DNA of 64,000 nt, from sequence record NZ_CP096760.1; one strand, written 5' to 3'. This DNA is from a plasmid. The notes below the pieces were generated by a model that was not told the origin of the DNA, ran no database searches, and saw nothing but the letters and a program-made list of their open reading frames with translations. The translations under genes were made by a program, and so were the position numbers. Of the stretch, positions 10,512-61,715 are shown piece by piece; position 1 is the stretch's first letter; each line of letters begins with the position of its first letter.

Positions 10512-10536
10512 CAGACCTCCTTATTTGCTAGCATTG

Positions 10537-10559
10537 ATACTATAGTACCCCATAGTATA
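10537..10559. promoter_or_regulatory. putative FrmR operator ATACTATAG-TACCCC-ATAGTATA
   Basis: Inverted ATACTAT/ATAGTAT half-sites around a C-tract, 26-48 bp upstream of the frmR start; matches the CsoR/RcnR-family operator architecture. Confidence 0.5.
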
Positions 10560-10701
10560 AGAAAAGCAATATTTTTTATAAATCGAAAATCAAAAAGACC
10601 TTTAGCGAAAATTTTCTATCCCTGTTTTTAGTTTTTTTAAATTAACATCGTAGAGCTGATGATGTGTGCTGAAATAACAGAACACTTTCACTTAGGATAT
10701 T

Positions 10702-41444: not shown

Positions 41445-44400
41445 ATGGCTGGCGAAATTAACAATACGCTCAAACTTGATGTCAATCAATTTGACCAAGC
41501 TATTCAAAAGGCATCAGATCGCCTAGATAAGCTAGACAGCAATCTGGGGAAAACCAACGCTTCCGTCGAAAGCTTGGAGAAGATTCTTAGTGGTTTGGGC
41601 GGAGATATTCGCCAGCTCTCTTCCTCATTCAAAACGCTTGATGACAATCTGGCAGCTTCCTTGAAAATGTTAAGTGGGGTTCAGAAAAATACTGACTCAC
41701 TTTCACGCTCATTGGATAGCGTAGACAAATCGGCATCAAAAACTGCCAAAACCACAGCGCAAGCAGCCAAAAGTATTGAAAATTTGGCTGACTTTACGCA
41801 AGCCTACGAGAAAAAGCTCAAAAATTTAAACCCACTTTTGAATAGAGTTTCAAAGGGTCAGCAGATTCTTGAGGCACACGCAAAAGCGACTGGTGACGAA
41901 CTAGAGAAGCAATCAAAACGAACACTTGCGAATAACGCTAGAGCTTTACAGGCTGAGATTAAGAATAACGAGAAGCTGCTCGCTGAACGCCGTGAAATGG
42001 CTTATAAGGCCGCACAGATTCAGAAACGTGCGGAAGTTAATTTAGCAGTACAGCAAAAACTTTATAACGGCACATTCTTCGGCAAGAACAAGAATTCCAC
42101 TTCTGAAAAAGCAGTGGAAATGCGCGCAAATATTGAATTGTGGCGTAAAGAGGCAGATGCGGCCAAGCTTGTTAAGGAGCAAATCAAGTCTGTCATTCGT
42201 GATATTGAATATCAAAATGGCGAGCTGCAAAAAGGTGTAAACCTGCTCAATCAGCAGATTGAACGCACCCGCGCACTTAAAAACCAGCAATCTGTAGAAC
42301 AAGCCAAATCCCGTCAGGAACAAAAGAGCCTAGACACAGCACGTAAACGCCAAGAGCTTGAAAAGAGAACCGAGGCTTGGTGGAAAGAAGCGCTCTTTAA
42401 CCGTGAACGAAGAGAGGAAGAGGCTGAGCGCAGACGCATTGAAAAACGACGTCAATTAGAGCAGGAGTATTCAAACTGGTTTAATCGCGAACTCGACAAA
42501 CGCGAACGCCGAGAAGCCGATGCACGCCTAAAACAGCGCCCTCTAATTCGAAACATCGATGAAGAACGCCAAGCTCAGACACGAACTGCGGATGCTCGTC
42601 GTAAGCTGGAACTTGATTATACGGGTTGGTGGACAAGAACGCTCAATAACCGAGATCAAGCTGCTCAACGCGCTGCCGAGCAGGCGGAACGTGACGCTCA
42701 TCGCGTGAGAATGCAGCAGCTTAATGAAGAGCGTAAGGCTCAAGAGCTATTGCATCGAGAGCAAATGTCTGTTGCCAAAGACCTTGCCGCAATGTACGCA
42801 AGTATCAAGATCAATCAAGGTCTAGGCGGCGCTGTACACAAAAATATGGAATTAGAGCAATCTAAATTCCGTCTATCATTGTGGAATCTTCCAAAAGAAG
42901 AACAAGAACGATTCCTTCAAAAATCCAGAGATTTAACCAAGACTGAGAAATATCTCACCAATACAGAAGCCATTGATGCCCGTCTTGACGCTATGGCTGC
43001 AATGGGTGGCAACCACGAAAAGACCATTGATGCCACATTAGCAACTGCTACCCGTGTGGCTCACATCTTACGTGCAACGGGTAATGAAACAGGTTCAAAC
43101 AGCGACCTAGTGAAAAACTTGTACGGATTCGCCGAATCCCGCCAAGTCATGAACAATGTCGATGAAATTAACAAATCATTCGAGACGCTGTTAAAAATCT
43201 CCAATATTTCAAACGGCAAAATCAAAATTGCCGACGTTGAAACCATTGCGCGTAACATGGGCGGTATGCGAGCTGACGTCTCAGCCGATGGCTGGTTAAA
43301 AATCGCAGCGCTTGGTGAGCAGTTCAAGACCGCTGGTGGTGGTAACGGTGGTGGCGGGGGTATCGCAACCGTAGGTACGATGCTCAAGATGATGGGTTTA
43401 TACGGTTCGGGTAAGACAATTACCAATCGTGCCGTAACCGATCTGATGGGCGCCGATATCCTCAACGAATTCAAGGACGGCGATGCTGAGAAGGCGTTCA
43501 GAGAAAACGCTAAAAATATCAAAGAATTTACCAAAATGATGAAGAACGCGGGCTTCAAGGACTTGAAGTCGATGGGCGAAGATCCGGTTAAGTTCTTCTC
43601 ATCTTTACGCGGTCAGATTCTTGATTACATGATGCGTGAAGATAACTTCACCCGCTTCTTTGGTGAAGGGACCAAGCGTTGGACCTACAACCAGAAAGGT
43701 CAGATGATCAACAGCGAAGGCAAAGTTGTTGATCCGAATGAACAAAACAAAATTGAGCGCACGGGCTTTACTCGTTGGGCTTCTGGCATGGGCTGGTCAA
43801 ATAAAACCGTAGACGGTTTGACCACCATGTTAGATAAACGCTTCATTGACCGCGCAAATGAAGTGGCAGAAAGCGCTAAACGTTCAGCAGAAAGTCAGCA
43901 GGCCCTAAAAGAAGCTCAAGACACATTAAAGGGTAGCACAGACAACCTAATGGCTTCATTGGGACGTTTGGCTGAATCATTTGCTCCGCTTCTACCTTTT
44001 TTAACGGGCTTCGTTAATGGTCTAACCAAAGCGGTAGACGGCATTGCAAACTTGATGAATTTGCATCCCGCAATTGCCATTGTGACAGGTCTTGGAGCTG
44101 GTTTTGGCGCCCTAACCTTAGCGACAAGTTTATTTTTTGGGAAATTAAGCCTAGTTAGTCGCCTAGTTACAACACTCCTTCCTGCATTGGGTGGCTTGGG
44201 TAAGACTGCTCAAACCTCTTCCGGTCAATTGGCTACCGCAACAAGCACTGCAAATAACTTAGGGCAGGCGGTATCAAAAATGGGCGATGGCACAAAAAAT
44301 GTTGTGCCTAAAGTTTCCAATATGAGTACACGCGTCCTTGGCATTTTGGGCGGCATGTTACGCTGGGCAGGCTGGGTCGGGTTAGGACTTCTTGTAGGTC

Positions 44401-47033
44401 AAATGTTCATTTCTTGGCTTGATAGCGTCAACAAGAATGAAACCCCGTTAAGATCATCCTTCCAACGGTTAGTGCAAGGCTTACGGGATGACCTGATCGC
44501 AGGGTTAAAAGGTCTACATACCATCTGGAACAATGCTTTAATCCAGTTAGGCATTGATACAGAAAACGCACGCCGTAATCTCCGTGATTTGGCAAACTAC
44601 AAAGGCGAAGTTTTAAAAATCCCAGTTAAAGGTGTAACGGCTGAAGAGGGCGGTGGCTTTACCTCAACACCTGCAACCCGTGAACTTGGCAAGAAAATCA
44701 CCAAATTGCTTGAGAAGCGGGAGCTTGTACAAAAGGGGAAAGGCTTCTTAACGAATGCGCTTGACGGTGGCAAACAGCAATTAAAAGAAATTGACGATAT
44801 GCTTGCCGGGTACAGACGCGGCATGAAATTAGGCGGGCTGGTTTATATCGAGAAAGGCCCATACGCTGGACAAGTCGTTCTTAAAAAGGACATTGAAAAG
44901 AACGCCAAGCTTCTCAAAAATAAGCAGAAGCAAGCTGCTGCCGCTAAAACTTCGTCTGCAACCTCTACAGGAAGTGTATTACCTACACCGTCAAATCTTG
45001 CCGATTATTCTGCACCGGCAATTGGTTCTGGTGGAGGCTCAACGCCTAAAGAGAAAACTGGACGAGGTTACGATCGCCAATGGAACAACCTATATCGTGC
45101 TGATGTTGAGAAAGCCTTGTTGGGCGCTCAAGACCGCGAGACTGATATTAGTGAAATTCTCGGTCAGCCTGTTGACTACCTCAAGAGAGCGAAGAACGAC
45201 TTTATCGAGCGTTGGATGAGCGGAAAATGGGATGACAATAATGACCCACGCTCACGTCCATTCACGAAGGGTACATACAATCCTGATACAGGTTGGACTA
45301 AGGATCAAATTGACTGGGACGGCATGTACAAAGGTCAACATGTCAATGAGTTCCTTAACGCCCAAATGAAGAAGTTGATGGCCGATGACTACAAGGCATC
45401 AATTCAGTTTGCCGCTGAAAGATCGGCTTCAACAGATGAGGACTTTAAGAACGTCCTTGATCAATTTGTCGAGAATGACACCAAGAAATCTGATGCCTTA
45501 ATGGCTTTAGAACGTCAGTTCGCCCGTTATGAAGTGCGTAATCCAATGGCACTTCAAGCAGGCGGTTATAACGACTTCAAGGACTTTGCGCTTAACCATC
45601 AGGTGGCCAAGGACACTTTATCCAAAGCTTATGAGTCTAAAAACATCAATAAACAACTCTCCATTGACCTAATGGATAGTGAAGTTGATCGACGTCAATC
45701 TTCTGCCGACTATGCGTATGATGAAGTTGCCAAGGAGATCAATGAGCAGCGTAAGGCGCTAGAAAAGCGGATTCAGATTACCAAAACCATGATGGAAAAC
45801 GATGAGGCTGCCAAGAAGGAATATGCAGAACTCATCAAAGCCAAAGAGCTGGCTGAAGAGGAATTCACCAAGCGCTTAATGCTTGAAAATGAAAAGCGTG
45901 TTCGCGCCTCTGAATCCGCAACACAGCAGATGCTACGCCAATACCGTGATCTGAAAGTCGGTATTGAAAGCATTAACCAGAAGTGGACAGAAAGTGCTAT
46001 CGACTCAGTTGCCGACCTCATTACAGGACGGATGAGTTTCAAGGACTTCGACTGGCGTCAAATTGGATCTGATATTTTTGCCGATTATGCAAAAGTCTTT
46101 GTAAAAGATTCAGCAAGTAAGCTAATTACCAACGTAATGGGTAACCAATCCATTTTTGATCTTGGTAAATCCTTATTGAGCGGTAAAGCTGCTGGCGGAA
46201 TGGGCTGGGCATCAGACTTGCTAAATAGATGGCGCGGTTTAGGTCCTTATGCTCCGGCTGTTGACCCAAATACAGGCGAATCTACAAGTGCTGCGGTCAA
46301 TACTGAAATTACTGACACTATACCGCTATTTGACAAACTACGCGCTACCTTAAATCCACTGACTCAAGGATTAAGTTCATTATGGGAAAATGTCAGCAGC
46401 GCATCACAGGGTCTTTGGACTTTTGCGTCAGATGCTATCAGCAAGGCAATTAATGCTTTGTTCCAATGGGCAACAAGCCTGTTAGCATCAAGCACAGCTT
46501 CCAGCGGCTCATCGGGCGGTAACTGGTTAGGTACATTGTTCCAAGTCGGAATGGCCGCTTATGGAGCTTACAGCGGTGCAGGAGCAGGTATTGGAGACAT
46601 TAGTAGCGGTGCTTCATATCAAGTCGGCGGTGGCTTCAACAGCGCTGTAGGTTGGAGTGGTACATCACAGTTCGCCAAGGGTGGAATTTTTACCAACTCT
46701 ATCGTGAATGAACCTACACCGTTTATGTTTGCCAAGGGTGGAAGTTTTGCAAACGGTCTGATGGGAGAAGCAGGGCCAGAAGCAATCATGCCGCTTACTC
46801 GCGATTCATCGGGCAGACTCGGTGTTTCCATGTTGGGAGCGGGTGACGCTTCAAACGACATGCAAAATCACGTTCAAATCCAAATCACCGTAAACAACGA
46901 TGGAAGCTCTTCTACAAGCGCATCTGGCGGTGATGCTCAAGAATATAAACAAATGGCGAAGCAGGTCGAAGCCATTGTCATGAGCACCTTGGACAAACAA
47001 AGCAGACCGGGAGGAAGATTATATAAGAAATAA
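41445..47033 (+). CDS. tail tape measure protein (1862 aa)
   Basis: Long coiled-coil N-terminal half, Gly-rich and hydrophobic segments, lambda-gpH-like C-terminal motif. Confidence 0.85.
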   Translation: MAGEINNTLKLDVNQFDQAIQKASDRLDKLDSNLGKTNASVESLEKILSGLGGDIRQLSSSFKTLDDNLAASLKMLSGVQKNTDSLSRSLDSVDKSASKTAKTTAQAAKSIENLADFTQAYEKKLKNLNPLLNRVSKGQQILEAHAKATGDELEKQSKRTLANNARALQAEIKNNEKLLAERREMAYKAAQIQKRAEVNLAVQQKLYNGTFFGKNKNSTSEKAVEMRANIELWRKEADAAKLVKEQIKSVIRDIEYQNGELQKGVNLLNQQIERTRALKNQQSVEQAKSRQEQKSLDTARKRQELEKRTEAWWKEALFNRERREEEAERRRIEKRRQLEQEYSNWFNRELDKRERREADARLKQRPLIRNIDEERQAQTRTADARRKLELDYTGWWTRTLNNRDQAAQRAAEQAERDAHRVRMQQLNEERKAQELLHREQMSVAKDLAAMYASIKINQGLGGAVHKNMELEQSKFRLSLWNLPKEEQERFLQKSRDLTKTEKYLTNTEAIDARLDAMAAMGGNHEKTIDATLATATRVAHILRATGNETGSNSDLVKNLYGFAESRQVMNNVDEINKSFETLLKISNISNGKIKIADVETIARNMGGMRADVSADGWLKIAALGEQFKTAGGGNGGGGGIATVGTMLKMMGLYGSGKTITNRAVTDLMGADILNEFKDGDAEKAFRENAKNIKEFTKMMKNAGFKDLKSMGEDPVKFFSSLRGQILDYMMREDNFTRFFGEGTKRWTYNQKGQMINSEGKVVDPNEQNKIERTGFTRWASGMGWSNKTVDGLTTMLDKRFIDRANEVAESAKRSAESQQALKEAQDTLKGSTDNLMASLGRLAESFAPLLPFLTGFVNGLTKAVDGIANLMNLHPAIAIVTGLGAGFGALTLATSLFFGKLSLVSRLVTTLLPALGGLGKTAQTSSGQLATATSTANNLGQAVSKMGDGTKNVVPKVSNMSTRVLGILGGMLRWAGWVGLGLLVGQMFISWLDSVNKNETPLRSSFQRLVQGLRDDLIAGLKGLHTIWNNALIQLGIDTENARRNLRDLANYKGEVLKIPVKGVTAEEGGGFTSTPATRELGKKITKLLEKRELVQKGKGFLTNALDGGKQQLKEIDDMLAGYRRGMKLGGLVYIEKGPYAGQVVLKKDIEKNAKLLKNKQKQAAAAKTSSATSTGSVLPTPSNLADYSAPAIGSGGGSTPKEKTGRGYDRQWNNLYRADVEKALLGAQDRETDISEILGQPVDYLKRAKNDFIERWMSGKWDDNNDPRSRPFTKGTYNPDTGWTKDQIDWDGMYKGQHVNEFLNAQMKKLMADDYKASIQFAAERSASTDEDFKNVLDQFVENDTKKSDALMALERQFARYEVRNPMALQAGGYNDFKDFALNHQVAKDTLSKAYESKNINKQLSIDLMDSEVDRRQSSADYAYDEVAKEINEQRKALEKRIQITKTMMENDEAAKKEYAELIKAKELAEEEFTKRLMLENEKRVRASESATQQMLRQYRDLKVGIESINQKWTESAIDSVADLITGRMSFKDFDWRQIGSDIFADYAKVFVKDSASKLITNVMGNQSIFDLGKSLLSGKAAGGMGWASDLLNRWRGLGPYAPAVDPNTGESTSAAVNTEITDTIPLFDKLRATLNPLTQGLSSLWENVSSASQGLWTFASDAISKAINALFQWATSLLASSTASSGSSGGNWLGTLFQVGMAAYGAYSGAGAGIGDISSGASYQVGGGFNSAVGWSGTSQFAKGGIFTNSIVNEPTPFMFAKGGSFANGLMGEAGPEAIMPLTRDSSGRLGVSMLGAGDASNDMQNHVQIQITVNNDGSSSTSASGGDAQEYKQMAKQVEAIVMSTLDKQSRPGGRLYKK

Positions 47034-49468: not shown

Positions 49469-52400
49469 ATGAACGCTAAAATTAAGAAATTTGGTTTTCC
49501 TTTACCAATTGCAGGGGCTTCTGGAGGCAGCAAAAGCCCTTCCGTGCCGAGAGAAGATCCAGATAACCTTCAATCTAGCGCGTATGTAAATATCATTGAT
49601 CTAATTGGCGAAGGTCAAATCGGTGGTCTGGTCGATAACGTTGACGGCGACAGTCTTACCGAAAAAGAAAAATCAATCTTTTTTGATGGAACACGCTTAC
49701 GTCATACAAACGGTGAACTGAACTTCGCGAATGTGTCTTGGGCGGAACGGGTCGGTTTACAGCGACAAGACTACATCGAAGGATTTGGCGAAGGGGTAGA
49801 GACTCCTTTTTACAAAAACGTACAGCTTAAATCCGGCATCCCTAGCGCATTTACGGTTTCAAACCCGAATGCAGATCGCGTTCGCATCATTTTGGCCGTG
49901 AACTCTCTTTTGTCTACCGATCGCAGCTCCGGCGATACCTATGGCACTTCCGTAGAGTTCCAAATCAAGTTGTCGGTAAACAACGGCCCTTATGAAATCC
50001 TTGCAACTAAAAAAATCACTGGTAAAACAACATCACGTTATCAGCGTTCTTTCTCTTTCGACCTTCCAAAAAAGAAAGCTGACGGTACACCAATTACCGC
50101 TTGGTCATTCCAGATCACAAGAACAACCCCAGATTCAAATTCATCGTACCTTCAAAACACAACATTCTTCGAGAGTTACTCGGAAGTTGAATTAACCAAG
50201 TTTTCATATCCAAACGTTGCATTGGTCGCTACCCGATTCAGTTCAGAAACGTTTAGTTCAATTCCTAAACGTGAGTATCTGGTAGATGGTCTATTAATCA
50301 AGGTTCCGTCAAACCGCAATAAAGACGGGTCATACACAGGGCCTTGGGATGGTACTTTCAAGCTTGAGTCATCAAGTAACCCTGCATGGATTCTGTATGA
50401 CCTGTTACTTAGCAAACGTTACGGTCTAGGCGAATACATTACGCCTGAAATGATCGACGAAAGCCGTTTGTATGTAATTGGTCAGTATTGCGATCAGCTT
50501 GTAGACGACGGTTTTGGCAACAAAGAACCGCGATACACAATTAACTGCGTTATCAATACTCGTGTTGAAGCGTATGACCTCATTGTCGATATTTGCTCGG
50601 CATTTAACGGCATGGCGTATTGGGCAGGCCATATGGTGGGCTTTACCATCGATGCGCCAGGCACTCCGCAAATGCTGTTCAACAATACCAATATTGTTGG
50701 CGATTTCTCTTATCAGGGAACTTCGAATAAAGACCGTCATTCAGTCGCGGTAGTTACATGGAATGATCCGAATGACGACTACAAACAAGTTCCAGAAGTA
50801 GTTGAAGACCCTGAACTCATTGAACGCTATGGCATTCGCAAAACAGAAGTCATGGCATTCGGGTGTACGTCACGCGGTCAAGCTGCTCGTTATGGCCGTT
50901 GGTTGCTATACAGCGAGCACCAACAGTCAGAAACAATCACATTCAATGTCGGCATTGATGCAGCTCTCCTATTGCCGGGTGATTTGATTTACGTTCAAGA
51001 CCGTGACCGCGCGGGTAAACGTTTTGGTGGACGTTTACTAGATTGCACAGCCAAACAGGCAGTTCTTGATGATCTGGTTGATTTTGGGGAATTTACTGAT
51101 TTGACGCTTGTGATCCGTTTAGAAGATGGGTCATTAGCAGAGCGCGTAATTGCTTCTCATACCAAAAAGACAGTAACCGTTTCTGGACACACCAAAGAAG
51201 TAACAGTGGTGGAATGGGCTGAAGCCTTGACGGTTATGCCTGTCAAATACGCTTTATGGATTATCAAAGCGGCAGAATTACAACCAGTAATCGCTCGCGT
51301 TGTAAACGTTGCTCAAGGTGAAGAAAAGGGCACTTATAACATTACTGCCGTTCCTCACAATCCTAACAAGTATCAATCTATTGAAAATGATTTGATGCTT
51401 GATGTTCCGCCGACTTCAATCTTGAACTCTCGCAATCAGGAACCTCCTGCAAGTGTCGAGATTAAGAGTGAAATTATTACCACTCAAAATGTCGCAAAAA
51501 CTCGCCTCGTTATTAGCTGGAAAGAAGCGAAAAATGCAGCGCGTTATGAAGTCGAATGGAAACGCAATGATGGCAACTGGGTCAAGCTTCCACAGACCAC
51601 TTCATTAAGTATTGAGGTTGAGGATGTATACGCGGGAGCCTATACAGCTCGCGTTGTTGCGTACAACCTTTTTGGCGCACGTTCTTATCCGAAGTATTCA
51701 ACAAGCACCGACGTAAAAGGAAAAGTTGGCAAGCCAACTAATGTCCTTTCTTTGACAACCACGCCGTTATTGTTCGGCATGAAGCTCGATTGGGTTTATC
51801 CGGCAGGTAACTCTGACCTATCACATGTTGTCATTGAAGTGAGTGATCGGGCTGATGGTTCAAACCCTAGATTGCTCGGTAATGTTTCATATCCTACAAA
51901 CACCTTGACTATTCAGGGATTACAGGGCGGTCTTGATCAATGGTACAGAACGAAAACCGTTGATAAGTCTGGCAATGAAAGTGATTGGTCGAACTTCGTT
52001 AAAGGCACGACTGGAAATGACCCAGATCAGGTACTTGATCTAATCTCTGGTCAAATTGGAGAAAGCGACCTTGCAACTGAATTACAGGGCAAGATTGAAA
52101 ATTCAGTAACCGTATCTGAAGCCGCAAAGATTGTTGCTGACAACGCTCAAACGGCAGCAACAAACGCACAAACAGCAGCGACAGATGCCAAAACAGCAGC
52201 TTCCGAAGCTCAAAAAGCAGCAAGCTCTGCCCAGACACAAGCGTCATCGGCTCAACAAATCGCTAGTGAAGCAAGTGCAACAGCGGCTAACGCCAAAAAT
52301 GCAGCAGACCAAGCGGTAACGGCTGCAAATCAAGCAAAAACAGCCGCAGATAATGCAGCGACAACGGCAGCTACGGCAAGTTCTACTGCATCAAAAGCTC

Positions 52401-55400
52401 AAACTACGGCAAACGATGCAGCCGCAGCCGCATCAAAAGTTGCTTCTGATTTAACAACCTCAACAAATCAGTTGAATAAGAAAATTGCTGATGAAACTGA
52501 TGCACGCACAGTGGCAATTTCTAAACTGAATGATGGCCTGACAATTGAAACATCTCAGCGTAAGACAGAAGATGCGGCGCTGTTAAGCAATATTGAGACC
52601 TATAAGTCGAGCACAAATGGCACTTTGTCTAGTCTGCAAACGCAAATTAATACCAACGCGACAAATACAAGCGCAAATACATCAAAAATTTCTTCGCTTG
52701 ACTCTCGTTTAACCACAAACGAAGGCAAAACAGCAGATGCGATTAATGCAGCGGCAACAGCTCAACAAACCGCAAGTTCAGCGGTAGACAAGGCTAATGC
52801 TGTTGCAAACTCCGTTACTGCTCTTAAATCAGAATTAAGCAGCGGAAAAGGCATTAATAACATTGTAGCTCCCTTCTCGGATCCGCAAGAACTTCCAGCT
52901 CTTGGTGGGGCGAGTCGTACCGTAGCTTTGGTGGACTCTGCGTTACGTCGAAACGGCAAGGCTTACAAAGTGTCATTCACGGCGGCGGCTCATTATGTGT
53001 ATTTCGGCACCGCTCAAGCCGCTCTAGCACCATCACAAATGGCGATGCAAGTTGAAGCGGGGCGCGCTTATACATTTAGCGTTTGGTTGAAGGCTTTATC
53101 AACAGCCGTTCCGTCATTCCGTTTCAACATCCTGTGGTTTATTCGTGACCCTAGCACTGGAAACATCACAACAAATGCCGGAATCATTTTTCCACAAGGT
53201 CAAACAGATTCTTACATTGCTCCGAACGCTAACGGCCAACGATACTCATTTAGACCAGTCAACTCACCTGCAAATGCAATCGGCGCTACCGTCTATGTCG
53301 TAGGTAACCCTTCAGGGCCTTCTGCCGGCGAATACCTCATCGATATGTTGATGCTTGAAGAGTCTGTCGGTTCCGAAAAGCCTGCTTCTACGTGGACGGC
53401 GGGTCCTGCTGATCTAAATGCGATTAAGAATGCCTTAGATACAAACGCTGTAGCAATCAACAACCTAATTACACGCGTTTCGAACAACGAGGGGAAAATT
53501 ACATCTCAAGGCAATTTGATCACGCAACTAAACAACAGCATTAATACGATTAATGGAACCCTTTCAAACAAAGCGGATGCTACAGCTTTAAATGCATTAA
53601 CAACTCGCGTTTCTAATGCTGAGGGGCAAATTTCATCACAAGGGTCGTCAATTGTCTCTCTTCAAAACGATCTAGCATCTACCAACAAAGCCGTTTCAAC
53701 CAAAGCTGACTCAAGCGCTCTCAATTCTTTGGATTCAAAAGTCTCAGAAATTGATGGCCGAGTAACAAGTAATGCCAACGCTGTTACATCTCTTCAAGGT
53801 AGTGTTTCGAGCATTGAGAAAGGACTTTCAACCAAAGCAGACGCATCTGCATTAAACAACTACTACACAAAAACTGAGGCTGATTCTGCCGCCTCTGGCG
53901 CAATCGACAAGTTCAACAGTCAATTGACGATTGGTGGTGTAAACGTTGTTGCGAACTCCGAAGCTCCTCGCACTTCAACTGCCGCAACGAATCGCGAATA
54001 TTTACTGTATGAACGTAGCGCCGAATTAAAAGCGTTCTATGACGAAAACCTTGAGAAGCCAATCACGATTTCGTTTGAAATGAGCGTTCCTGTGGCTGGA
54101 CCGGTTCAAGTTTATTCGTCAAATGGTTCTGCTCACCAATTCGTTACTTCCGTTAATGCAATTATCGTAAATCAATTTGCCAAATATTCAGTAACAGTTA
54201 GTCCAAAAGCGCATACGGCAAGTACAACTGTTTCGACAATTGAGTTCTATGGAACGTATGGAACTGGCCGTATCCCGACGATTCGTAAATTACAAATTGA
54301 AGCGGGCACAAAGGCTACCGCTTGGAGTCCAAGCCCTCGTGATACAAAGGCTGCAATTGACGCCAATGCTTCTGCAATTCAAACGACCCAAACAAAAGTT
54401 GACAATATCGATGGTCGGCTAACCACTGCTACAGATTCGATTACGTCACTAAATTCGCGCATGTCTACAGCCGAAGGAAATATCAACAGCACAAATACTG
54501 CGGTTGGTGGACTTTCGACACGCATGGCAACCGCTGAGGGCAAGATCACCAATCAAAGTGATTCAATTGCATCGCTACAAAATAGCGTCACCTCAATCAA
54601 TGGAACACTGGCAAACAAAGCCGATTCAAGCGCGGTCAATAACTTAACTAGCCGAGTGGAAACAGCCGAGGGCAAGATTTCAAGTCAAAGCGGGCAGATT
54701 ACTTCGCTTAGCAATAGCCTTGATCTAACAAACAGTAACTTGAACGACGTAAACGTTCTGGCGCGACTGTTATCTCTTGGCAAGCCTCTACGCGACGATC
54801 CAACTTTCAAAACGACCTCTGCTGGTGGTTTATCTGCATACAGTTTCCCTGCGGGAACTTCATGGGTTAAGCAAACTAAGTCAACAGACAACCCAACTGG
54901 CTCAACCCATGAAATGTTGATCAAAGCAACTCAAGCGTTGGGTGGTGGTTGGTATCCAACTGCACCTACGCTTGTACTCACTGCAAATAAAACCTTCTTA
55001 ATTAAACAAATTATTAAGATGCCAGTGGGTACAAAATTACAAGCCATCGGTAATGCTACGGGTACGGGTGGATACATCCGAATCTTGGGTAATGATCTAG
55101 GAACTGGCAAATTTGAAACGTACTACTCTGTCGTACAAGGTGGGGCTGATTTAAGTGGCTCTACTATTCAAGGTCATTTCCGCGTAATTGCCGGTACTAA
55201 CCCGCCAGTACCAACGGTTGATAATCCAGTCTTTGTGATTCTTGCTTCATACGAAGTATTTGATGTAACGGCTGTAAACGACACCATTCCAAAAGCTTAT
55301 AGCGATGCTATTGCAGCCAATGCGAATGCGATTAACACCCTGTCAAACACTGTCAGCCAGCAGGGTAATACCATTACTTCCCATAGTAATTCTATTACTC

Positions 55401-58400
55401 AACTAAATAACAGCATTTCAAGCATCAACGGCGCACTTTCGAGTAAAGCGGATGCGAGCGCATTACAGTCGCTTGATTCAAAAGTAACACTAATCGACGG
55501 CAAAGTTACATCTAACTCTTCTGCATTAACAGCGTTGCAAAGCAGCTTTGAGGGAATTCCAAATCAAGGCGTGAACTTGCTCGGCCCTGAAATTTCCAAC
55601 CCAATCGAAAAGCCAAATTGGATTTCAGGTCTTCCATTTGAAGTTATTCAATCACCAGATACGGTGAATGTGCGTGCGTTCCAATTCACGATGCCTGCCA
55701 ACACCACTAGCGGCACTTACTTCAACATTGGTGGCGGCCAAGTTCCGCGACAGTGGCTAACAGAAGGTACATACATTTTTAGTTTTGTTGCCAAAACTGT
55801 TGGCGGGACACCACCGCATGCTATTGAGTGGCAACTCTACAATGTAGATAGTACACGCCTGCGCTTTAATATTACCGCAACATTAACCCGCTATAGCGGG
55901 GTGTTCACGGTGCCCGCTGGTGGTGCCGCTGCATGTATGCTGTTAATCGGAAACCCTACAGGCAAACCTGCGGGACAAGTTATCAATATCGAAAGAATGA
56001 TGCTTGAACGGCAAGTTGGCAACAACACAACCCCTTCGGCTTGGATTGCAGGTAGCGACCCAACCGGAATGATTCTTTCAACGCAAGCCAAGGCGACTGA
56101 TTTATTCAACACAGCCACTAGCCAAAACGCCGCGACTGCGGGACGCGTCACTAGCCTCGAAAGTCGCATGACGACCACAGAAGGCAATTTAAACAAAAAG
56201 GCTGATGCTTCTGCGCTTCAAAACCTCGACACGAAAGTTACGAATGTCGATGGCAAAGTAACGTCAAATACCAATGCCATTACAGCTTTAAGTTCAACTT
56301 TAAGCAACGCTACTTCAAGCATTTCAATGAATGCGGGTAATGCACAGGGCGATTGGACATTCTTTAATACGTCAGGCGAATACTCAATTGTTGCACAAGC
56401 GGATGGCCAAGCGGGTCGTGTTATTCAACTTGGAAATAATGCTGGCAATGATATTGTTTGGATGCATCCGAATAACTTCATTCCTTTTGATGCAACTAAG
56501 ACATATCGACTTCGTGCGCGGTATCGCCGTCGTGCCGGAACAGGCACAATTTACCTCGGTGTCTCTCAGAAAACCCCAGACAAGGCACTATACGTAACAA
56601 CAGCCAACGCATTATCGGGCGATATGGGGTCTTCTAACTATGTTGTTAATGCGCACGCACCTGCGATCGATGAATGGCAAGAAATCGTTGCGTATATCAA
56701 AGGTCGATCAGCAGGAGCAGCATCGGGTTCAGGCTCAAAAACAAGCCCACGTACTGTTTCACAACAAGCAGGCTTCATCACGCCGATGTTTATTGCAAAC
56801 TATTCGGCGCAAACGGGCATTGTTGAGCTTGATTACCTAATTCTGGAAGATGCAGAGGCAATTGTTGGCAATGATGCAAATGCATCAGCGATTAGCGCTC
56901 TTGATACCAAAGTATCAGAAGTTGATGGACGCTTAACGACAGCAACAAATTCAATCACTTCGCTTAACTCTCGTATGAGTGCAGCAGAAGGGAATATCTC
57001 AGCGGCAAACTCGGCTCTAAGCGGTCTTTCAACGAGAATGACGGCTGCTGAAAATGGTTTAACCAATCAAAGTAATGCGATTACTAATTTAAGTAACAGC
57101 TTAACGGTTACAACCAATACAGCGAACGCTGCATTGCCTAAGATTCAGGGCGGTACTGGCGCAGCTAAGTTATTTAGAGGCGTTCTTGTATGGCAGCAAA
57201 ACGGCGCAAATCTAACTGGCAATATCGTAATCCAAACGCCAATTACCTTCACAAATAAAATGTTCCGACTTTCACTTACTGGCTATAACTACTTGGCCGC
57301 TAAGAATGAAATTAATCTGAACATTGGGGGCTATGCATATTCGGGCACCTCTCTGCTTCAACATGGAGTGGTAAATTCGGGCACCATGCCAATTCGAGTT
57401 CGCATGGGTGTCCGAAATGGCACAGTAGTCGTTATTTTAACTTCTCAGGCACCAGGCGCTTACTGGCAATATCCAAAATTCAATATCGACGCTGAAATTG
57501 GCTACACAACTCCACCAGATAGTTGGGCCGATGGTTGGTCAGCTAGTTTCATGGCTGAGGCAGACCTCGCATCTAATGGCATTTCTGCAATCATTGAGCC
57601 GTCTTTATTAGACATTTCAACAACGCTTAATGCCACTGCTTCTGCAATTAGTAATCTGACAAATACTGTGTCTCAACAGGGCGATACAATTACTTCTCAC
57701 AGTAATTCTATTACCACCTTAACCAACAAGATTACTAACAATGATTTATCGAATCTTGTTCTTAATCCTGATTTCGTAGACCCGAAAAGCGATTGGACAT
57801 CTGGCGTAATTGTTGATGCGACTGACGCAGCGCCTAACCCGCCTTCTGCAAAAGCATTAAGACTGAATAACCGTGATAGTTATTACGGTCCTTTCGTCAA
57901 ATGTAATGTTGGCGACATGTTCTATGTTTCGGCTTGGTTTGCGACGCCAAATACATCAGCAACCGCTTCTGCCGTGCTTGGTTTCAATACTCGGAACAGC
58001 GCAGGCACTTACACTTGGTATAGCGTTGCCATTAAGTCTACGGACAAAAATGCTTGGGGTATGGTGGAAGGTTATTTCACTGTGCCAAATGGCATGGTTG
58101 ATATTCGACCTTGGCTTCAAGTAAGTATTGCTGCGTCAGAAGCAGCGGGGCAGCAATGGCATGTTACGAACATTCAAGTACGTAACATTACAGGTAATAA
58201 GAAGTTAGCAACCGACTTGCAAGCAACCTCGTCCGCCGTAACTGATTTAACTTCAAAAGTTACAAACATCGACGGTCGTTTAACTTCGGCATCAAATAAT
58301 ATCGTTACGCTCAACAATAGCGTTACAAACATCAATGCCACCCTCGCCCAGAAGGCAGATGCGACAGCCTTAAATTCGCTCTCTAATCGAGTAACCACTG

Positions 58401-60652
58401 CGGAGGGGAATATCACAAGCCAAGGTAATTCAATTACCTCATTGACTAATTCCCTAGCGGTTAGTGGAAAGGCGGGCACAAACCTTCTCATCAAATCCAA
58501 TGTAGTTGGCACTTATGATGGTGTCTCATACCCACACCATACATACAAACTCGGTGAAGATTGGGAAGTTGGGGCTACATATACTTTAATTTGGTGTGCT
58601 GAACATAAACGAGGGACTGGCGATACAAACTCATCACTTGCTGTATACGCAGGTGGTGGCTCACAACATCTGCAAGCCGTAGTAAATACGAATGGTAAGG
58701 TTGTCAGCAAAGTTACCTTTGTTAAAAACAGCGCAGTTGCCTCTGGCCCAATTATCCACTTCTACATGCTCAACCGTCCGACAGCCGACAAGGGTAGCGT
58801 TGGTACGGTTTATTGGGCGGTGCTTGTAAAAGGCGATGTACTCACGACTGATGCTTGGATTCCAAGCCCATATGATTATATCCCTGATAGCAATGCAAAT
58901 GCCGCTGCTATCGCAAATCTTACTAATACAGTAAGTCAGCAAGGCAATACTATTACATCAAATAGCAGCAGCATTACCTCGCTCACTAATCAAATCGGTA
59001 ACACGAAGTCATATTCGCTGGTGACTTTCCGTAACGGCTCTGCCGTTGGCATGCCAAAGGCGGCTGGCGTCTACACTGGAAACAATACGCGATTATATGG
59101 ATTTGGGCGCGGTTTAAATCTCATTGTGTTTAAAAATGGGGATGTTGAAAGCTGTACGCAATATGACACCTATGTCGACATCGTATCTGCATGTAACGCC
59201 ATCTATGCCGCTATCAAGGCGCTTGCATCGGGAACTTACTTTGCAATCGTGGGTACAGATAACATTGGCTCAGTTGGAAATTCAAACCCAAATACTGATT
59301 TACGTGCGCTTTTACTTGCTTCTGGTGCTGGCGACACATATTTCAGATCTTGGAACTGGAATGCTCTTCCTATTTTTGTAGGACGCAAAGACCTAGATGC
59401 AGGCAATGGTATTCTCGGTATGTTTGATTCGACTGTTCCTAATCAGTGGATTGAATACCCGCTTAGTTTTGTGAATGGTGTACCTGTAGGTTTAGGTGAC
59501 TCCCGAACTTTAACCACTCAACTGGATGCAAATGCTTCTGCCATTTCGTCATTGTCGAACACAGTGACTCAACAAGGTAAGGATATTGCTTCACATAGCA
59601 GTAGTATTACCTCGCTAAACAATAGCATCACCAATATTAACGGCACGTTAGCAACAAAAGCAGATAGTTCGGCTCTAACAAACCTCGCCAACCGCGTAAC
59701 TACAACCGAAGGTGCAATTACCTCTCAAGGCTCAAGTATTACTTCGCTGAATGCATCTGTGAATGGCTTATTAAAGGATGTTGCAGTATCCGATACTCGA
59801 TCTACTAATCAGCCTCCATCGTGGTATTGGTCAAACTATCCATTGCGTATCGTTCGCGAGTTCAAGCAAGCCTCTGTGCTAGGTTTGACTGGCATGGGTA
59901 CATATGTCTCCCTTGAAACATACGTTTATTGGATTGACCCATCTGGTGGCCCAATCATTCAAATTGCACGAGGTTCTTCTTCGGCTTTTACTGCTGAACG
60001 AAGAAGTGCTGATTACAACTCGTGGTTCGCATGGTCTCAGGACATTAAAGCATTGAGTGATGGCTTATCGAATAAAGCTGAGGCCTCAGCGCTATCTTCA
60101 CTTGATGCCAAGGTATCAACGATTGATGGAAAAGTCTCAACTCAGGCGACAAGTATTACCAATCTGCAAACAACTGTGGGTGGACATACGGCGTCAATTC
60201 AATCGCAGCAACAATCAATTGATGGATTGAAATCAAGAGCAACTTTGAAGTTGCAATCCGGCAATTTAATTGGCGGTGTTGGGATTGAGAACGATAGCAA
60301 AACCGTTGATTTCATTATTCAGGCTAACAAGTTCGCCATCGCTCCACCATCTAATGCCGCAGCGGGTTCTGTAGCGCCTAAATACGCATTTGTTTATCAA
60401 CCGACAGCCACAACGTTGCCAAATGGAACAGTCGTACCTGCCGGACTGTATTTGGACAATGCGTCAATCGGCTATATCAACGCGGAAAAAATCAATGCCT
60501 CAAGTTTAAGTGCAATTAGCGCAAATCTTGGAACTTTAACCACACTTAAGGATCCAACGAAGCCTAATGGAGCGCGAATGGTTATTACAGGTAGTTTGAC
60601 TACCGTTTATGACGATAACAACGTGGCACGTATTAGATTAGGGATTTGGTAA
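49469..60652 (+). CDS. giant host-specificity / central tail fibre protein (gpJ-like N-terminal third plus long fibre extension), 3727 aa
   Basis: gpJ-like N-terminus and Fn3 region, Ala/Thr/Gln-rich tract (52110-52450), at least 10 serial coiled-coil repeat units and at least 4 CBM-like beta modules. Confidence 0.85.
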   Translation: MNAKIKKFGFPLPIAGASGGSKSPSVPREDPDNLQSSAYVNIIDLIGEGQIGGLVDNVDGDSLTEKEKSIFFDGTRLRHTNGELNFANVSWAERVGLQRQDYIEGFGEGVETPFYKNVQLKSGIPSAFTVSNPNADRVRIILAVNSLLSTDRSSGDTYGTSVEFQIKLSVNNGPYEILATKKITGKTTSRYQRSFSFDLPKKKADGTPITAWSFQITRTTPDSNSSYLQNTTFFESYSEVELTKFSYPNVALVATRFSSETFSSIPKREYLVDGLLIKVPSNRNKDGSYTGPWDGTFKLESSSNPAWILYDLLLSKRYGLGEYITPEMIDESRLYVIGQYCDQLVDDGFGNKEPRYTINCVINTRVEAYDLIVDICSAFNGMAYWAGHMVGFTIDAPGTPQMLFNNTNIVGDFSYQGTSNKDRHSVAVVTWNDPNDDYKQVPEVVEDPELIERYGIRKTEVMAFGCTSRGQAARYGRWLLYSEHQQSETITFNVGIDAALLLPGDLIYVQDRDRAGKRFGGRLLDCTAKQAVLDDLVDFGEFTDLTLVIRLEDGSLAERVIASHTKKTVTVSGHTKEVTVVEWAEALTVMPVKYALWIIKAAELQPVIARVVNVAQGEEKGTYNITAVPHNPNKYQSIENDLMLDVPPTSILNSRNQEPPASVEIKSEIITTQNVAKTRLVISWKEAKNAARYEVEWKRNDGNWVKLPQTTSLSIEVEDVYAGAYTARVVAYNLFGARSYPKYSTSTDVKGKVGKPTNVLSLTTTPLLFGMKLDWVYPAGNSDLSHVVIEVSDRADGSNPRLLGNVSYPTNTLTIQGLQGGLDQWYRTKTVDKSGNESDWSNFVKGTTGNDPDQVLDLISGQIGESDLATELQGKIENSVTVSEAAKIVADNAQTAATNAQTAATDAKTAASEAQKAASSAQTQASSAQQIASEASATAANAKNAADQAVTAANQAKTAADNAATTAATASSTASKAQTTANDAAAAASKVASDLTTSTNQLNKKIADETDARTVAISKLNDGLTIETSQRKTEDAALLSNIETYKSSTNGTLSSLQTQINTNATNTSANTSKISSLDSRLTTNEGKTADAINAAATAQQTASSAVDKANAVANSVTALKSELSSGKGINNIVAPFSDPQELPALGGASRTVALVDSALRRNGKAYKVSFTAAAHYVYFGTAQAALAPSQMAMQVEAGRAYTFSVWLKALSTAVPSFRFNILWFIRDPSTGNITTNAGIIFPQGQTDSYIAPNANGQRYSFRPVNSPANAIGATVYVVGNPSGPSAGEYLIDMLMLEESVGSEKPASTWTAGPADLNAIKNALDTNAVAINNLITRVSNNEGKITSQGNLITQLNNSINTINGTLSNKADATALNALTTRVSNAEGQISSQGSSIVSLQNDLASTNKAVSTKADSSALNSLDSKVSEIDGRVTSNANAVTSLQGSVSSIEKGLSTKADASALNNYYTKTEADSAASGAIDKFNSQLTIGGVNVVANSEAPRTSTAATNREYLLYERSAELKAFYDENLEKPITISFEMSVPVAGPVQVYSSNGSAHQFVTSVNAIIVNQFAKYSVTVSPKAHTASTTVSTIEFYGTYGTGRIPTIRKLQIEAGTKATAWSPSPRDTKAAIDANASAIQTTQTKVDNIDGRLTTATDSITSLNSRMSTAEGNINSTNTAVGGLSTRMATAEGKITNQSDSIASLQNSVTSINGTLANKADSSAVNNLTSRVETAEGKISSQSGQITSLSNSLDLTNSNLNDVNVLARLLSLGKPLRDDPTFKTTSAGGLSAYSFPAGTSWVKQTKSTDNPTGSTHEMLIKATQALGGGWYPTAPTLVLTANKTFLIKQIIKMPVGTKLQAIGNATGTGGYIRILGNDLGTGKFETYYSVVQGGADLSGSTIQGHFRVIAGTNPPVPTVDNPVFVILASYEVFDVTAVNDTIPKAYSDAIAANANAINTLSNTVSQQGNTITSHSNSITQLNNSISSINGALSSKADASALQSLDSKVTLIDGKVTSNSSALTALQSSFEGIPNQGVNLLGPEISNPIEKPNWISGLPFEVIQSPDTVNVRAFQFTMPANTTSGTYFNIGGGQVPRQWLTEGTYIFSFVAKTVGGTPPHAIEWQLYNVDSTRLRFNITATLTRYSGVFTVPAGGAAACMLLIGNPTGKPAGQVINIERMMLERQVGNNTTPSAWIAGSDPTGMILSTQAKATDLFNTATSQNAATAGRVTSLESRMTTTEGNLNKKADASALQNLDTKVTNVDGKVTSNTNAITALSSTLSNATSSISMNAGNAQGDWTFFNTSGEYSIVAQADGQAGRVIQLGNNAGNDIVWMHPNNFIPFDATKTYRLRARYRRRAGTGTIYLGVSQKTPDKALYVTTANALSGDMGSSNYVVNAHAPAIDEWQEIVAYIKGRSAGAASGSGSKTSPRTVSQQAGFITPMFIANYSAQTGIVELDYLILEDAEAIVGNDANASAISALDTKVSEVDGRLTTATNSITSLNSRMSAAEGNISAANSALSGLSTRMTAAENGLTNQSNAITNLSNSLTVTTNTANAALPKIQGGTGAAKLFRGVLVWQQNGANLTGNIVIQTPITFTNKMFRLSLTGYNYLAAKNEINLNIGGYAYSGTSLLQHGVVNSGTMPIRVRMGVRNGTVVVILTSQAPGAYWQYPKFNIDAEIGYTTPPDSWADGWSASFMAEADLASNGISAIIEPSLLDISTTLNATASAISNLTNTVSQQGDTITSHSNSITTLTNKITNNDLSNLVLNPDFVDPKSDWTSGVIVDATDAAPNPPSAKALRLNNRDSYYGPFVKCNVGDMFYVSAWFATPNTSATASAVLGFNTRNSAGTYTWYSVAIKSTDKNAWGMVEGYFTVPNGMVDIRPWLQVSIAASEAAGQQWHVTNIQVRNITGNKKLATDLQATSSAVTDLTSKVTNIDGRLTSASNNIVTLNNSVTNINATLAQKADATALNSLSNRVTTAEGNITSQGNSITSLTNSLAVSGKAGTNLLIKSNVVGTYDGVSYPHHTYKLGEDWEVGATYTLIWCAEHKRGTGDTNSSLAVYAGGGSQHLQAVVNTNGKVVSKVTFVKNSAVASGPIIHFYMLNRPTADKGSVGTVYWAVLVKGDVLTTDAWIPSPYDYIPDSNANAAAIANLTNTVSQQGNTITSNSSSITSLTNQIGNTKSYSLVTFRNGSAVGMPKAAGVYTGNNTRLYGFGRGLNLIVFKNGDVESCTQYDTYVDIVSACNAIYAAIKALASGTYFAIVGTDNIGSVGNSNPNTDLRALLLASGAGDTYFRSWNWNALPIFVGRKDLDAGNGILGMFDSTVPNQWIEYPLSFVNGVPVGLGDSRTLTTQLDANASAISSLSNTVTQQGKDIASHSSSITSLNNSITNINGTLATKADSSALTNLANRVTTTEGAITSQGSSITSLNASVNGLLKDVAVSDTRSTNQPPSWYWSNYPLRIVREFKQASVLGLTGMGTYVSLETYVYWIDPSGGPIIQIARGSSSAFTAERRSADYNSWFAWSQDIKALSDGLSNKAEASALSSLDAKVSTIDGKVSTQATSITNLQTTVGGHTASIQSQQQSIDGLKSRATLKLQSGNLIGGVGIENDSKTVDFIIQANKFAIAPPSNAAAGSVAPKYAFVYQPTATTLPNGTVVPAGLYLDNASIGYINAEKINASSLSAISANLGTLTTLKDPTKPNGARMVITGSLTTVYDDNNVARIRLGIW

Positions 60653-60967
60653 ATGGCAAACGCTAGACTTGAAATAAGGTATCCAGATAACTCAATCGCT
60701 TATGATTCGACAACGGATCATGTAATTACTTTTGTCACTACTGTAACGATTCAACAAAGTTCTTACAGCAAGCAAAACATTGCAGGAATTAATGATGGAC
60801 CTAGGTGGGCTGTTCCAACTGACGCCATCTACACCAATGGTAGATACATAATCTTTAATGTAGAAATCACCTTTGGAAAAACTACTGGTGGAGCACCTGT
60901 AATTTATGCAAAGCATGATTGGGGCCTACCTCCAGAAACAAACACATTTAAAATATTTCATCACTAG
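60653..60967 (+). CDS. hypothetical protein (beta-rich; possibly fibre-associated)
   Basis: 104-aa ORF right after J. Confidence 0.5.
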   Translation: MANARLEIRYPDNSIAYDSTTDHVITFVTTVTIQQSSYSKQNIAGINDGPRWAVPTDAIYTNGRYIIFNVEITFGKTTGGAPVIYAKHDWGLPPETNTFKIFHH

Positions 60968-60980
60968 GAGCTACGCAGTT

Positions 60981-61715
60981 ATGCCCATAGGTATTGAAAT
61001 TAAAGACGATACTGGTGAAGTTGTTCTCAACAGTGAAAGCAAAGTCTTAGTAAAAGCTGGTGAAATCGTATGGACTGCACAAGATATGACCAGTTCTAAT
61101 TGGGCAACAGGTGCTCGTAACCCTGTTACTGGAAAATACGAAACGCTGTTCGTAGCGCCATATAAACTAGCAAGGGATGATCAAATAAACTGGTGGCATG
61201 CTGACGATGCTGTAATTTTTAACCCGCAAACATTCACAGGTAGAGATTCTCAATACCAACCAGGTTTATATCAAGGCATTCATCAGGGACGGCAGACTAT
61301 ATACTGCCGTCAGTATACAGAAGCCTTAGCTATAAGCTCATCTTCATCCGCATATTTAGAAGTACGAAATGCTAACAATGAAATTGTATGGGATTTGCAG
61401 ACCTTCATGAATTCTCCAAGAATTCTTAAAATTGGAACATTTGAAGAAATGGTTGGAATTGATGAATGGAAAGCAAACGTTATACCTAACGGTGTTCCGG
61501 GCAAGATGTGGATATGGGTTGATGGTATAAATTTCTTCTGGTTCAACGGCGAAGGGGGTGATTTGTACCCACTTCCTCCTACACAAAATTTCTTACTAGC
61601 TTGTTTTAAAGATACAACTCTCTATTTGCAACTGAGATTAAGTGAACCTGCTATCGGTGATACAGATACCAGATCTTGGGTAACAACTATTTATGTAGGT
61701 TATATGCCAACTTAA
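60981..61715 (+). CDS. hypothetical protein (beta-rich; possibly paralogous to the previous ORF)
   Basis: Start at MPIGIEIKDD with AGGAG RBS. Confidence 0.55.
   Translation: MPIGIEIKDDTGEVVLNSESKVLVKAGEIVWTAQDMTSSNWATGARNPVTGKYETLFVAPYKLARDDQINWWHADDAVIFNPQTFTGRDSQYQPGLYQGIHQGRQTIYCRQYTEALAISSSSSAYLEVRNANNEIVWDLQTFMNSPRILKIGTFEEMVGIDEWKANVIPNGVPGKMWIWVDGINFFWFNGEGGDLYPLPPTQNFLLACFKDTTLYLQLRLSEPAIGDTDTRSWVTTIYVGYMPT

Follow-up and report, generated by a model that had tools for sequence, protein, structure and literature searches.

A TipJ-family central tail fibre with serial coiled coils and carbohydrate-binding-module-like domains on an Acinetobacter phage-plasmid

A stretch of 64,000 nucleotides of the plasmid record NZ_CP096760.1 (hereafter the window) contains a single ATG-started open reading frame (ORF) of 11.2 kb, located at 49469..60652 on the plus strand, which runs uninterrupted for 3727 amino acids (aa). 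Its product is almost certainly the central tail fibre of an Acinetobacter phage-plasmid. The N-terminal part is related to the tail-tip protein gpJ of phage lambda and is followed by a series of coiled-coil stalk segments alternating with globular modules, some of which have the fold of carbohydrate-binding modules (CBMs). The reading favoured here, which we regard as probable though by no means secure, is that this TipJ central fibre binds surface glycans through its CBM-like knobs and that the knobs are swapped to retune host recognition.

Acinetobacter baumannii is a priority drug-resistant pathogen whose highly diverse capsules restrict the host range of its phages. The protein family would represent a natural modular kit for specificity change, consisting of interchangeable lectin-type beads, a coiled-coil string and a constant tail tip, and this kit is common to plaque-forming phages, AM106 among them, and to phage-plasmids, for which no infectious form is known. 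With one to eleven modules in otherwise 97–98% identical elements, the alleles form a series that provides a natural test of module content against capsule type and a scaffold on which host range or capsule-typing reagents could be engineered. The main value of the system lies in this series and in the link between phage-plasmids and plaque-forming phages rather than in a new kind of system. The exact protein is already present in RefSeq, its relatives are labelled central fibres, and both J-type fibres and CBM-decorated tail-tip proteins are established; literature searches found no paper analysing the architecture of the 3727-aa protein.

Integrity and occurrence of the gene

The ORF product is identical to RefSeq WP_249374256.1 (UQM54121.1), named "TipJ family phage tail tip protein". 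Copies of the gene with 100% identity are present in three closed plasmids of Acinetobacter (NZ_CP033864.1, NZ_CP038645.1, and NZ_CP139838.1), and 25 more plasmids have it at 92–97.5% identity across 80% or more of its length. Collinear genes of 2990–3489 codons are carried by the isolated, plaque-forming phages AM106, Acba_3-18, and phi1_092021. Comparison of the DNA with itself shows that the repeats inside the gene are only 60–76% identical over 66–93 nucleotides (nt), and are therefore too diverged to have collapsed during assembly. The initial annotation had left room for an assembly artefact; the identical copies in closed plasmids and the collinear genes of isolated phages establish that the ORF is real.

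Most fibre homologues deposited at NCBI are labelled "partial" and are sited at contig ends, and short-read assemblies of A. baumannii routinely break within this gene. The breaks are probably caused by several resident elements with near-identical cassette blocks.

The tail-tip region

The first of the structural regions is the following:

49469..52108 (+), TipJ/gpJ tail-tip (hub) region with FNIII-type domains, aa 1–880; Pfam, PDB matches, gene order

Two Pfam families match this region well above their cut-offs (23 and 27 bits, respectively), namely Phage-tail_3 (aa 366–516, 84 bits, E 1e-23) and FNIII-A_GpJ (aa 111–240, 107 bits, E 8e-31), and the generic fn3 family gives a weak match below threshold (aa 672–735, E 0.0085). 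Four solved structures (PDB 25vf, 9l9p, 8iyk, and 23gd) match the N-terminal region with E values from 1e-107 to 7e-147; the F2-pyocin fibre 25vf aligns with aa 14–1089 (E 7e-147) and lambda gpJ 8iyk with aa 20–879 (E 1e-107). The five ORFs upstream encode a tape-measure protein of 1862 aa followed by homologues of gpM, gpL, gpK, and gpI, as assigned by PHROG matches, and the same order from tape measure to J is found by Pfam families on a sibling locus. By these alignments aa 1–880 is a tail-tip protein of the gpJ/F-pyocin type, in agreement with the earlier proposal that the first third resembles gpJ and includes an Fn3 region.

The tape-measure protein (41445–47033) matches PHROG 3394 from end to end; that of AM106 is shorter (about 1320 aa according to the record coordinates). 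Some homologues of 1948–1962 aa annotated as "phage tail protein", several of them plasmid-encoded (P0099–P0111), combine Phage-tail_3 and an ILEI module with a ParB_N match (aa 22–86) that, at 24 bits, is slightly below the cut-off; the combination may reflect either two genes fused in gene calling or a genuinely unusual N-terminus.

The coiled-coil stalk

The tail tip is followed by eleven stalk segments (CC0–CC10):

52109..52843 (+), CC0, Ala/Thr/Gln-rich heptad coil (aa 881–1010) and then a Ser/Thr/Asn-rich coil, aa 881–1125; composition, periodicity
53417..53923 (+), CC1, three full 44-residue units and a partial fourth, aa 1317–1485; unit hidden Markov model (HMM), E 5e-19 to 6e-20
54344..54739 (+), CC2, three 44-residue units, aa 1626–1757; unit HMM, P22 gp26 coiled-coil match
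55307..55546 (+), CC3, two 44-residue units, aa 1947–2026; unit HMM
56063..56302 (+), CC4, one full and one partial unit, aa 2199–2278; unit HMM
56867..57133 (+), CC5, two units, aa 2467–2555; unit HMM
57620..57736 (+), CC6, one unit, aa 2718–2756; unit HMM
58196..58462 (+), CC7, two units, aa 2910–2998; unit HMM, helical in a low-confidence AlphaFold2 model
58889..58993 (+), CC8, one unit, aa 3141–3175; unit HMM
59501..59767 (+), CC9, two units, aa 3345–3433; unit HMM
60056..60238 (+), CC10, the last coiled-coil unit, aa 3530–3590; unit at aa 3536, nt 60074

The protein is matched 22 times by an HMM of the 44-residue unit, in 18 cases with E < 1e-13, and all ten repeat starts listed in the initial annotation, which had counted at least ten copies, fall inside the eleven segments. 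Together the segments comprise 1108 residues with not a single Pro and a hydrophobic period of 3.4–3.5 residues, and their repeats are similar in sequence to the trimeric coiled coil found in gp26, the tail needle of P22 (best E 7e-9). The Ala/Thr/Gln tract that had been noticed at the start of the stalk is equally evident (aa 881–994, nt 52109–52450): it consists of 63% Ala, Thr, and Gln, contains no Pro and has an Ala period of 3.5 residues. An AlphaFold2 model of aa 2540–3727, built from a 22-sequence alignment and of low confidence (mean predicted local distance difference test, pLDDT, 35), places helices exactly at CC7–CC10. The repeats, described earlier as coiled coil, are thus stalk units which, as judged by composition, periodicity and the gp26 match, are heptad coiled coils; by analogy the stalk would be a trimer.

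Two other descriptions of the stalk were discarded. A hendecad (11-residue) periodicity, expected from a 44-residue unit, is ruled out by the spectrum, which peaks at 3.4–3.5 residues and is of the heptad type. The Ala/Thr/Gln tract was also considered as a specific homologue of the fold-switching coil of F-pyocins and was rejected, as on its own it gives only low-complexity matches.

The globular modules

Ten globular modules (M1–M10) lie between the stalk segments, ahead of the C-terminal domain (CT):

52844..53416 (+), M1, CBM4/9/22-like beta-sandwich, aa 1126–1316; paralogue of M4, family HMM E 7e-48
53924..54343 (+), M2, probable CBM4/9-type beta-sandwich, aa 1486–1625; jackhmmer, hhalign
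54740..55306 (+), M3, globular module, aa 1758–1946; identity between alleles 69–100%
55547..56062 (+), M4, CBM4/9/16/22-type beta-sandwich, the best characterised, aa 2027–2198; AlphaFold2, Foldseek, profile-PDB comparison
56303..56866 (+), M5, probably CBM_4_9-like, aa 2279–2466; Pfam matches of homologues
57134..57619 (+), M6, globular module, aa 2556–2717; rare among alleles
57737..58195 (+), M7, remote member of the CBM-like M1/M4 family, aa 2757–2909; iterated family HMM
58463..58888 (+), M8, beta-rich with weak CBM-like status, aa 2999–3140; hhalign to M2
58994..59500 (+), M9, ILEI/FAM3/POMGnT1-stem type, aa 3176–3344; Pfam ILEI, profile-PDB comparison
59768..60055 (+), M10, small conserved module, aa 3434–3529; many invariant columns

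The initial annotation had recognised at least four related beta-rich modules that resemble CBMs. These are M1, M4, M7, and M8, and the count has to be raised to ten by adding M2, M3, M5, M6, M9, and M10. The relationship stands for M1 and M4, which are clear paralogues, and for M7, which joins them through a deeper profile, but for M8 there is only a weak and indirect link. Likewise, the CBM resemblance is borne out for M1, M4, and M7 and is weak for M8; M9 resembles ILEI/FAM3 domains.

M1 and M4 are 27% identical and form the sole pair joined by hhalign when shallow profiles of the modules are compared with each other. A HMMER scan of 1.84 billion representative proteins for the M1/M4 family recovered only 42 clusters, nearly all of them giant proteins of 2000–7239 aa with up to ten copies each; 22 of the 42 have a gpJ N-terminus, and most of these also carry the same coil unit. 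Among PDB structures, the family profile (35 diverse members) matches CBM4-2 from a Rhodothermus xylanase (E 4e-7) and, less strongly, a CBM4 from a Thermotoga laminarinase (E 5e-6). Pfam CBM_4_9 is matched by 15 of the 35 members (best E 1.2e-6), and in the giant relative P0131 it reaches 42.9 bits. An AlphaFold2 model of M4, built from the family alignment, is a beta-sandwich (pLDDT 91.7; predicted template modelling score, pTM, 0.88) whose top Foldseek matches in the PDB are CBM22, CBM4-2, CBM16, and CBM61 (probability 1.0, TM score 0.55–0.62). Almost all of the top 25 matches are CBMs, and the CBM-cenC baseplate protein of phage phi812 is matched as well; in BFVD the same fold is found in many phage tail proteins, some of them named Tip attachment protein J. 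M7 is reached by the iterated M1/M4-family HMM (domain E 4.4e-7). By the M4 model and the family profiles, M1, M4, and M7 are assigned to the beta-sandwiches of the CBM4/9/22 clan.

M2 and M5 probably belong to the same clan. A jackhmmer search seeded with M2 recruits domains of the M1/M4 family, and hhalign gives a probability of 99% that is partly circular, the direct family HMM giving only E 0.0086. Two of eight M5 homologues match CBM_4_9 (best E 3.7e-5), with an hhalign probability of 41% to the CBM family. M8 aligns with M2 by hhalign (73% probability, E 3e-5), and one of its 12 homologues matches CBM_4_9 (E 0.0067).

M9 matches positions 1–89 of the 90-position Pfam ILEI profile (E 2.5e-4), and alleles that are 58–61% identical to the M9 query region reach 45 bits, above the 27-bit cut-off; its profile also matches FAM3B (E 8.7e-6) and the POMGnT1 stem (E 7.4e-5) in the PDB. 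By these profile matches M9 is an ILEI/FAM3/POMGnT1-stem domain. Profile searches of the PDB with M3, M5, M6, M8, and M10 gave nothing significant, and a Pfam scan of M3 homologues found nothing. M6 occurs in only 6 of 120 homologues and M10 in all 120. Similarity to glycan-binding folds is therefore found for M1, M4, M7, and M9 and is plausible for M2 and M5. From the fold, and by analogy with other proteins of this type, the odds that the modules bind glycans can be put at roughly even or better.

Six giant proteins of 4524–7239 aa (P0124, P0125, P0133, P0136, P0138, and P0139) have 3–10 CBM4-like modules together with M3-, M8-, and M10-like modules and no gpJ N-terminus, which indicates that the same beads serve other fibre anchors. 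The best BFVD match of M4 is a segmented giant protein of the Acinetobacter jumbo phage vB_AbaM_ME3 (37% identity).

The C-terminal tip

The last region of the protein is the tip:

60239..60652 (+), CT, C-terminal tip, aa 3591–3727; apparent similarity to tail-tip fibre domains and to the J "central straight fibre"

In phmmer searches CT matches the SU10 tail tip fibre 7z4b_EA (E 1.5e-4), in an alignment that reaches the very last residue, and the "J central straight fiber domain" 9ze4_N (E 2.7e-4). It is 95–98% conserved, even in an allele of 1478 aa. Comparison with the C-termini of F-pyocins gave no match. The Pfam family Phage_Tail_Tip (PF09327) has no match in the 3727-aa protein; it was found in the giant relatives P0131 and P0133.

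Relatives of M10-CC10-CT with 29–52% identity were found at four loci outside A. baumannii in a scan of species-representative genomes: two contigs of Neisseria sp. WLZKY-1 (L005, L007), a metagenome-assembled genome of Eubacteriales (L006) and Acinetobacter sp. CFCC 10889 (L004).

Exchange of the fibre cassette

Comparison of eight alleles (1478–4082 aa) showed that modules are gained, lost and replaced, so that the shuffling anticipated in the initial annotation does occur. The alleles from plasmids include that of plas2_LRT (4023 aa), with two different M1-like modules, that of pA52-1 (4082 aa), with an M5-like module in place of M9, and that of the Mu1956 plasmid (3891 aa), which has a tail tip of 46% identity, M1–M9 at 97–100% and another C-terminus. 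Those of AM106 and Acba_14 (3489 aa) are devoid of M9, and that of phi1_092021 (2990 aa) of M4, M6, and M9. The shortest allele, a complete J of 1478 aa with a single module, is found on the sibling plasmid contig GCA_048991435.1. This contig follows the window with 97.9% identity as far as nt 52161 and again, with 97.2% identity, from nt 60073 on; in between, about 1.2 kb replaces 7.9 kb. The right junction (nt 60073) falls where the last 44-residue unit begins (nt 60074, CC10), so that the exchangeable cassette has its 5' border inside CC0 and its 3' junction at the start of CC10.

The relation to phages is confined to the same part of the gene. Homology to AM106 DNA begins at gene nt 2562, within CC0, and only gene nt 2740–11070 are 87–91% identical to the DNA of the AM106/Acba phages; the common DNA stops at the J stop codon, and the genes flanking J are 23–34% identical to those of AM106 or unrelated. 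The fibre cassette is 87–100% identical in DNA across two phage-plasmid lineages and AM106-like phages, and their tail tips are just 40–46% identical; the N-terminal 880 aa have at most 40% identity to any deposited phage. Along the gene, blocks of 99.6–99.8% identity adjoin blocks of 55–70%. On these comparisons aa 881–3727 are a separately evolving cassette that is swapped among sibling plasmids, another lineage of phage-plasmids and temperate phages of the AM106 type.

Exchange likely takes place between co-resident elements with near-identical blocks in common, a route which would also explain the many homologue fragments at contig ends. The internal DNA repeats had been proposed as a recombination hotspot; at 60–76% identity over at most 93 nt they are too diverged, and were ruled out as the recombination substrate. 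Confinement of the breakpoints to the coils was also ruled out, as near-identical AM106 blocks begin and end within M3, M4, and M5 as well.

An A. baumannii allele (P0001) has M7 three times in tandem (about aa 712–994, 939–1235, and 1180–1639), which is direct evidence for module duplication.

Proposed function and alternative explanations

The proposed working is based on the established behaviour of J proteins and of CBM-bearing tail proteins of other siphophages. A trimer would project from the tail tip as a thin, segmented, beaded fibre, for which a length of about 150–200 nm can be estimated by counting about 0.15 nm for each of the 1108 coil residues and adding the ten knobs. These knobs, divergent and of the lectin type, would make many weak, reversible and multivalent contacts with the capsule or lipooligosaccharide (LOS), concentrating the virion on the cell and steering the tail tip towards the outer membrane, where the steps common to J-type tails would then fall to the J hub together with the conserved tip at the C-terminus. 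Swapping of modules would retune the surface glycans that are recognised.

Several points weigh against this proposal. CBM-fold domains can be purely structural. The modules of this protein score below the Pfam cut-offs (14.1 bits for M1, E 0.064, and 13.5 bits for M4 against 25.9 for CBM_4_9; 21.9 bits for M9 against 27 for ILEI), and the CBM and ILEI assignments thus rest on family profiles and one model. By sequence M3, M6, and M10 appear to match no known fold, and M8 has only a weak CBM link. Trimerisation and the length of the fibre are drawn from analogy and may not hold, and no long fibre is mentioned in the electron microscopy published for the Acba phages. The 1478-aa allele with one module in a sibling element indicates that most modules are dispensable for persistence of the element. 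Finally, the group to which this phage-plasmid belongs has no known infectious phage, so that function in this particular element is putative.

Binding might instead reside in the tip. M10, CC10, and CT would then form the specific receptor binder, with a protein or the LOS core as the probable receptor, and the knobs and coils would be mainly spacers or stabilisers that set the length and stiffness of the fibre and contribute at most non-specific stickiness. Of the distal parts, only M10 and CT occur in essentially all alleles, and they are kept at 95–98% identity in the one-module allele; CT aligns with tip domains of other J-type and SU10 fibres, and a passage on lambda J places receptor binding at its distal end (PMC11101478). 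It is hard to explain on these terms, however, why the Mu1956 lineage keeps M1–M9 almost unchanged while its C-terminus is replaced. The modules also turn over fastest between alleles, as expected of specificity determinants, and CBM and ILEI folds are typically ligand binders. This explanation is considered unlikely.

Another alternative ascribes the activity to the coils, which would be metastable and switch to a beta-prism on binding, as in the F7 pyocin, shortening the fibre, pulling the tail tip through the capsule and helping it to open. In the F7 fibre a coiled coil of 163 residues is reported to convert to a beta-prism in a switch seeded by a C-terminal beta-prism, and such a switch has been predicted in other siphophage central fibres (He et al., 2026). 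The best structural relative of the N-terminus is indeed an F-pyocin fibre, and a coiled-coil unit lies directly before the C-terminal domain, which appears related to central-straight-fibre tips. The motif SxSxxMxxLxS is enriched in CC1, CC4, and CC10 (8, 5, and 5 matches, compared with means of 2.9, 1.2, and 1.1 in shuffled sequences), but modestly, and any Ala/Ser/Thr-rich heptad coil would show some enrichment. CC0 alone has no significant similarity to the pyocin coil, giving only low-complexity matches, CT does not match the C-termini of F-pyocins, and the coils are broken up by folded modules, unlike the single continuous coil of the pyocin. A switch of this kind is improbable here.

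The two activities could also be combined in an active device, in which lectin knobs engage the capsule and 11 metastable coils convert stepwise to beta-prism, reeling in a fibre of about 200 nm; the chances of this appear slimmer still. If it were true, the tail tip would be dragged through the thick Acinetobacter capsule and its opening triggered, and the count of coil-plus-module links, which ranges from 1 to 11 among alleles, would adjust the reach and force of the fibre to how thick the capsule is. Lastly, the absence of a known infectious member of the group and the many contig-end fragments among database homologues could suggest an inflated relic in a defective phage-plasmid or mis-assembled repeats with no virion function, an idea of very low probability that is already largely refuted by the uninterrupted 11.2-kb ORF with its identical and 92–97.5% identical plasmid copies, the collinear 2990–3489-aa genes of plaque-forming phages and the divergence of the internal repeats.

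Relation to known systems

The closest relatives are the AM106-type central fibre and PHROG 2589/11678, followed by lambda gpJ and the F-pyocin fibres; the closest functional analogues would be the CBM-decorated Tal, Dit, and BppU proteins of Gram-positive siphophages. AM106 orf49, annotated as "putative main tail protein, central fiber", and its counterparts in Acba_3-18 and phi1_092021 (PHROG 2589/11678) have the same collinear cassette (87–91% DNA identity), with protein identities in orf49 of 90–100% for M2 and M4–M8 and 69% for M3. The tail tip is only 40% identical, and AM106 has a different M1 (45%), a CT of 78% identity, no M9 and unrelated neighbouring genes; moreover, AM106 is an integrase-encoding phage, whereas the element described here is a plasmid.

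Lambda gpJ and the F-type pyocin fibres (8iyk, 25vf, 9l9p) share the N-terminal ~880–1000 residues and the position after gpM, gpL, gpK, and gpI, and CT appears related to "central straight fibre" tips. Those proteins have ~1130–1200 aa and one continuous fibre, whereas here ~2500 residues of coils and ten modules are inserted, and a lambda-type receptor-binding domain is not detectable in the 3727-aa protein. Distal tail proteins from siphophages of Gram-positive hosts (evolved Tal/Dit/BppU, PblB) and the CBM-cenC baseplate protein of phi812 (9euf) likewise have beta-sandwiches of the CBM4/9/22 type, grafted on tail-tip proteins as adhesion modules (review, PMC7291167). The Gram-positive systems have multi-protein baseplates with one to a few CBMs on short linkers; here a single J protein carries up to ten or eleven modules, mounted through long coiled coils, and the host is Gram-negative.

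The needles of the P22 gp26/Sf6 type have trimeric coiled-coil repeats of similar sequence (E 7e-9 to 2e-5) but are plug proteins of ~230–300 aa with one coil, no serial modules and no J fusion. M9 matches the Pfam ILEI profile over its whole length, as well as the solved structures of FAM3B and of the POMGnT1 stem; it differs from these proteins as a single bead in a phage fibre, with its own score below the Pfam cut-off.

The host element and neighbouring genes

The region from tape measure to J matches 42 Acinetobacter plasmids in PLSDB (109–128 kb, 95–100% identity), and in the sibling locus a Rep3 replicase is encoded just past the lysis genes (L008, 14189–15310). The "AB" group of phage-plasmids has been described as elements of ~110 kb in two subgroups with no infectious phage known (Pfeifer et al., 2021). 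Taken together, the plasmid matches, the replicase and the fit to this description indicate a phage-plasmid and refute the integrated prophage assumed at first. By description, the element is a member of the AB group, an Acinetobacter phage-plasmid of about 110–117 kb with a siphovirus-type tail.

Within the window, positions 24000–64000 are the phage part of the element. Positions 1–24000 have a lower G+C content (0.36–0.41) and contain two insertion sequence transposases, at 947–1879 (DDE) and 10702–11571 (rve), and a cluster of genes for an iron-type alcohol dehydrogenase (Fe-ADH), two zinc-type alcohol dehydrogenases (Zn-ADH), an esterase, a DJ-1/PfpI protein and an OYE flavin oxidoreductase. 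This section looks like accessory cargo rather than phage genes.

Two ORFs lie directly 3' of J, at 60653–60967 (104 aa, phrog_5669) and 60906–61715 (269 aa, or shorter with an internal start; phrog_4524). Both are conserved in the sibling plasmid and are unrelated to orf50 and orf51, which occupy the same position in AM106; in the Mu1956 lineage this position is taken by a DUF4376 protein. The two ORFs could possibly encode fibre chaperones or accessory proteins.

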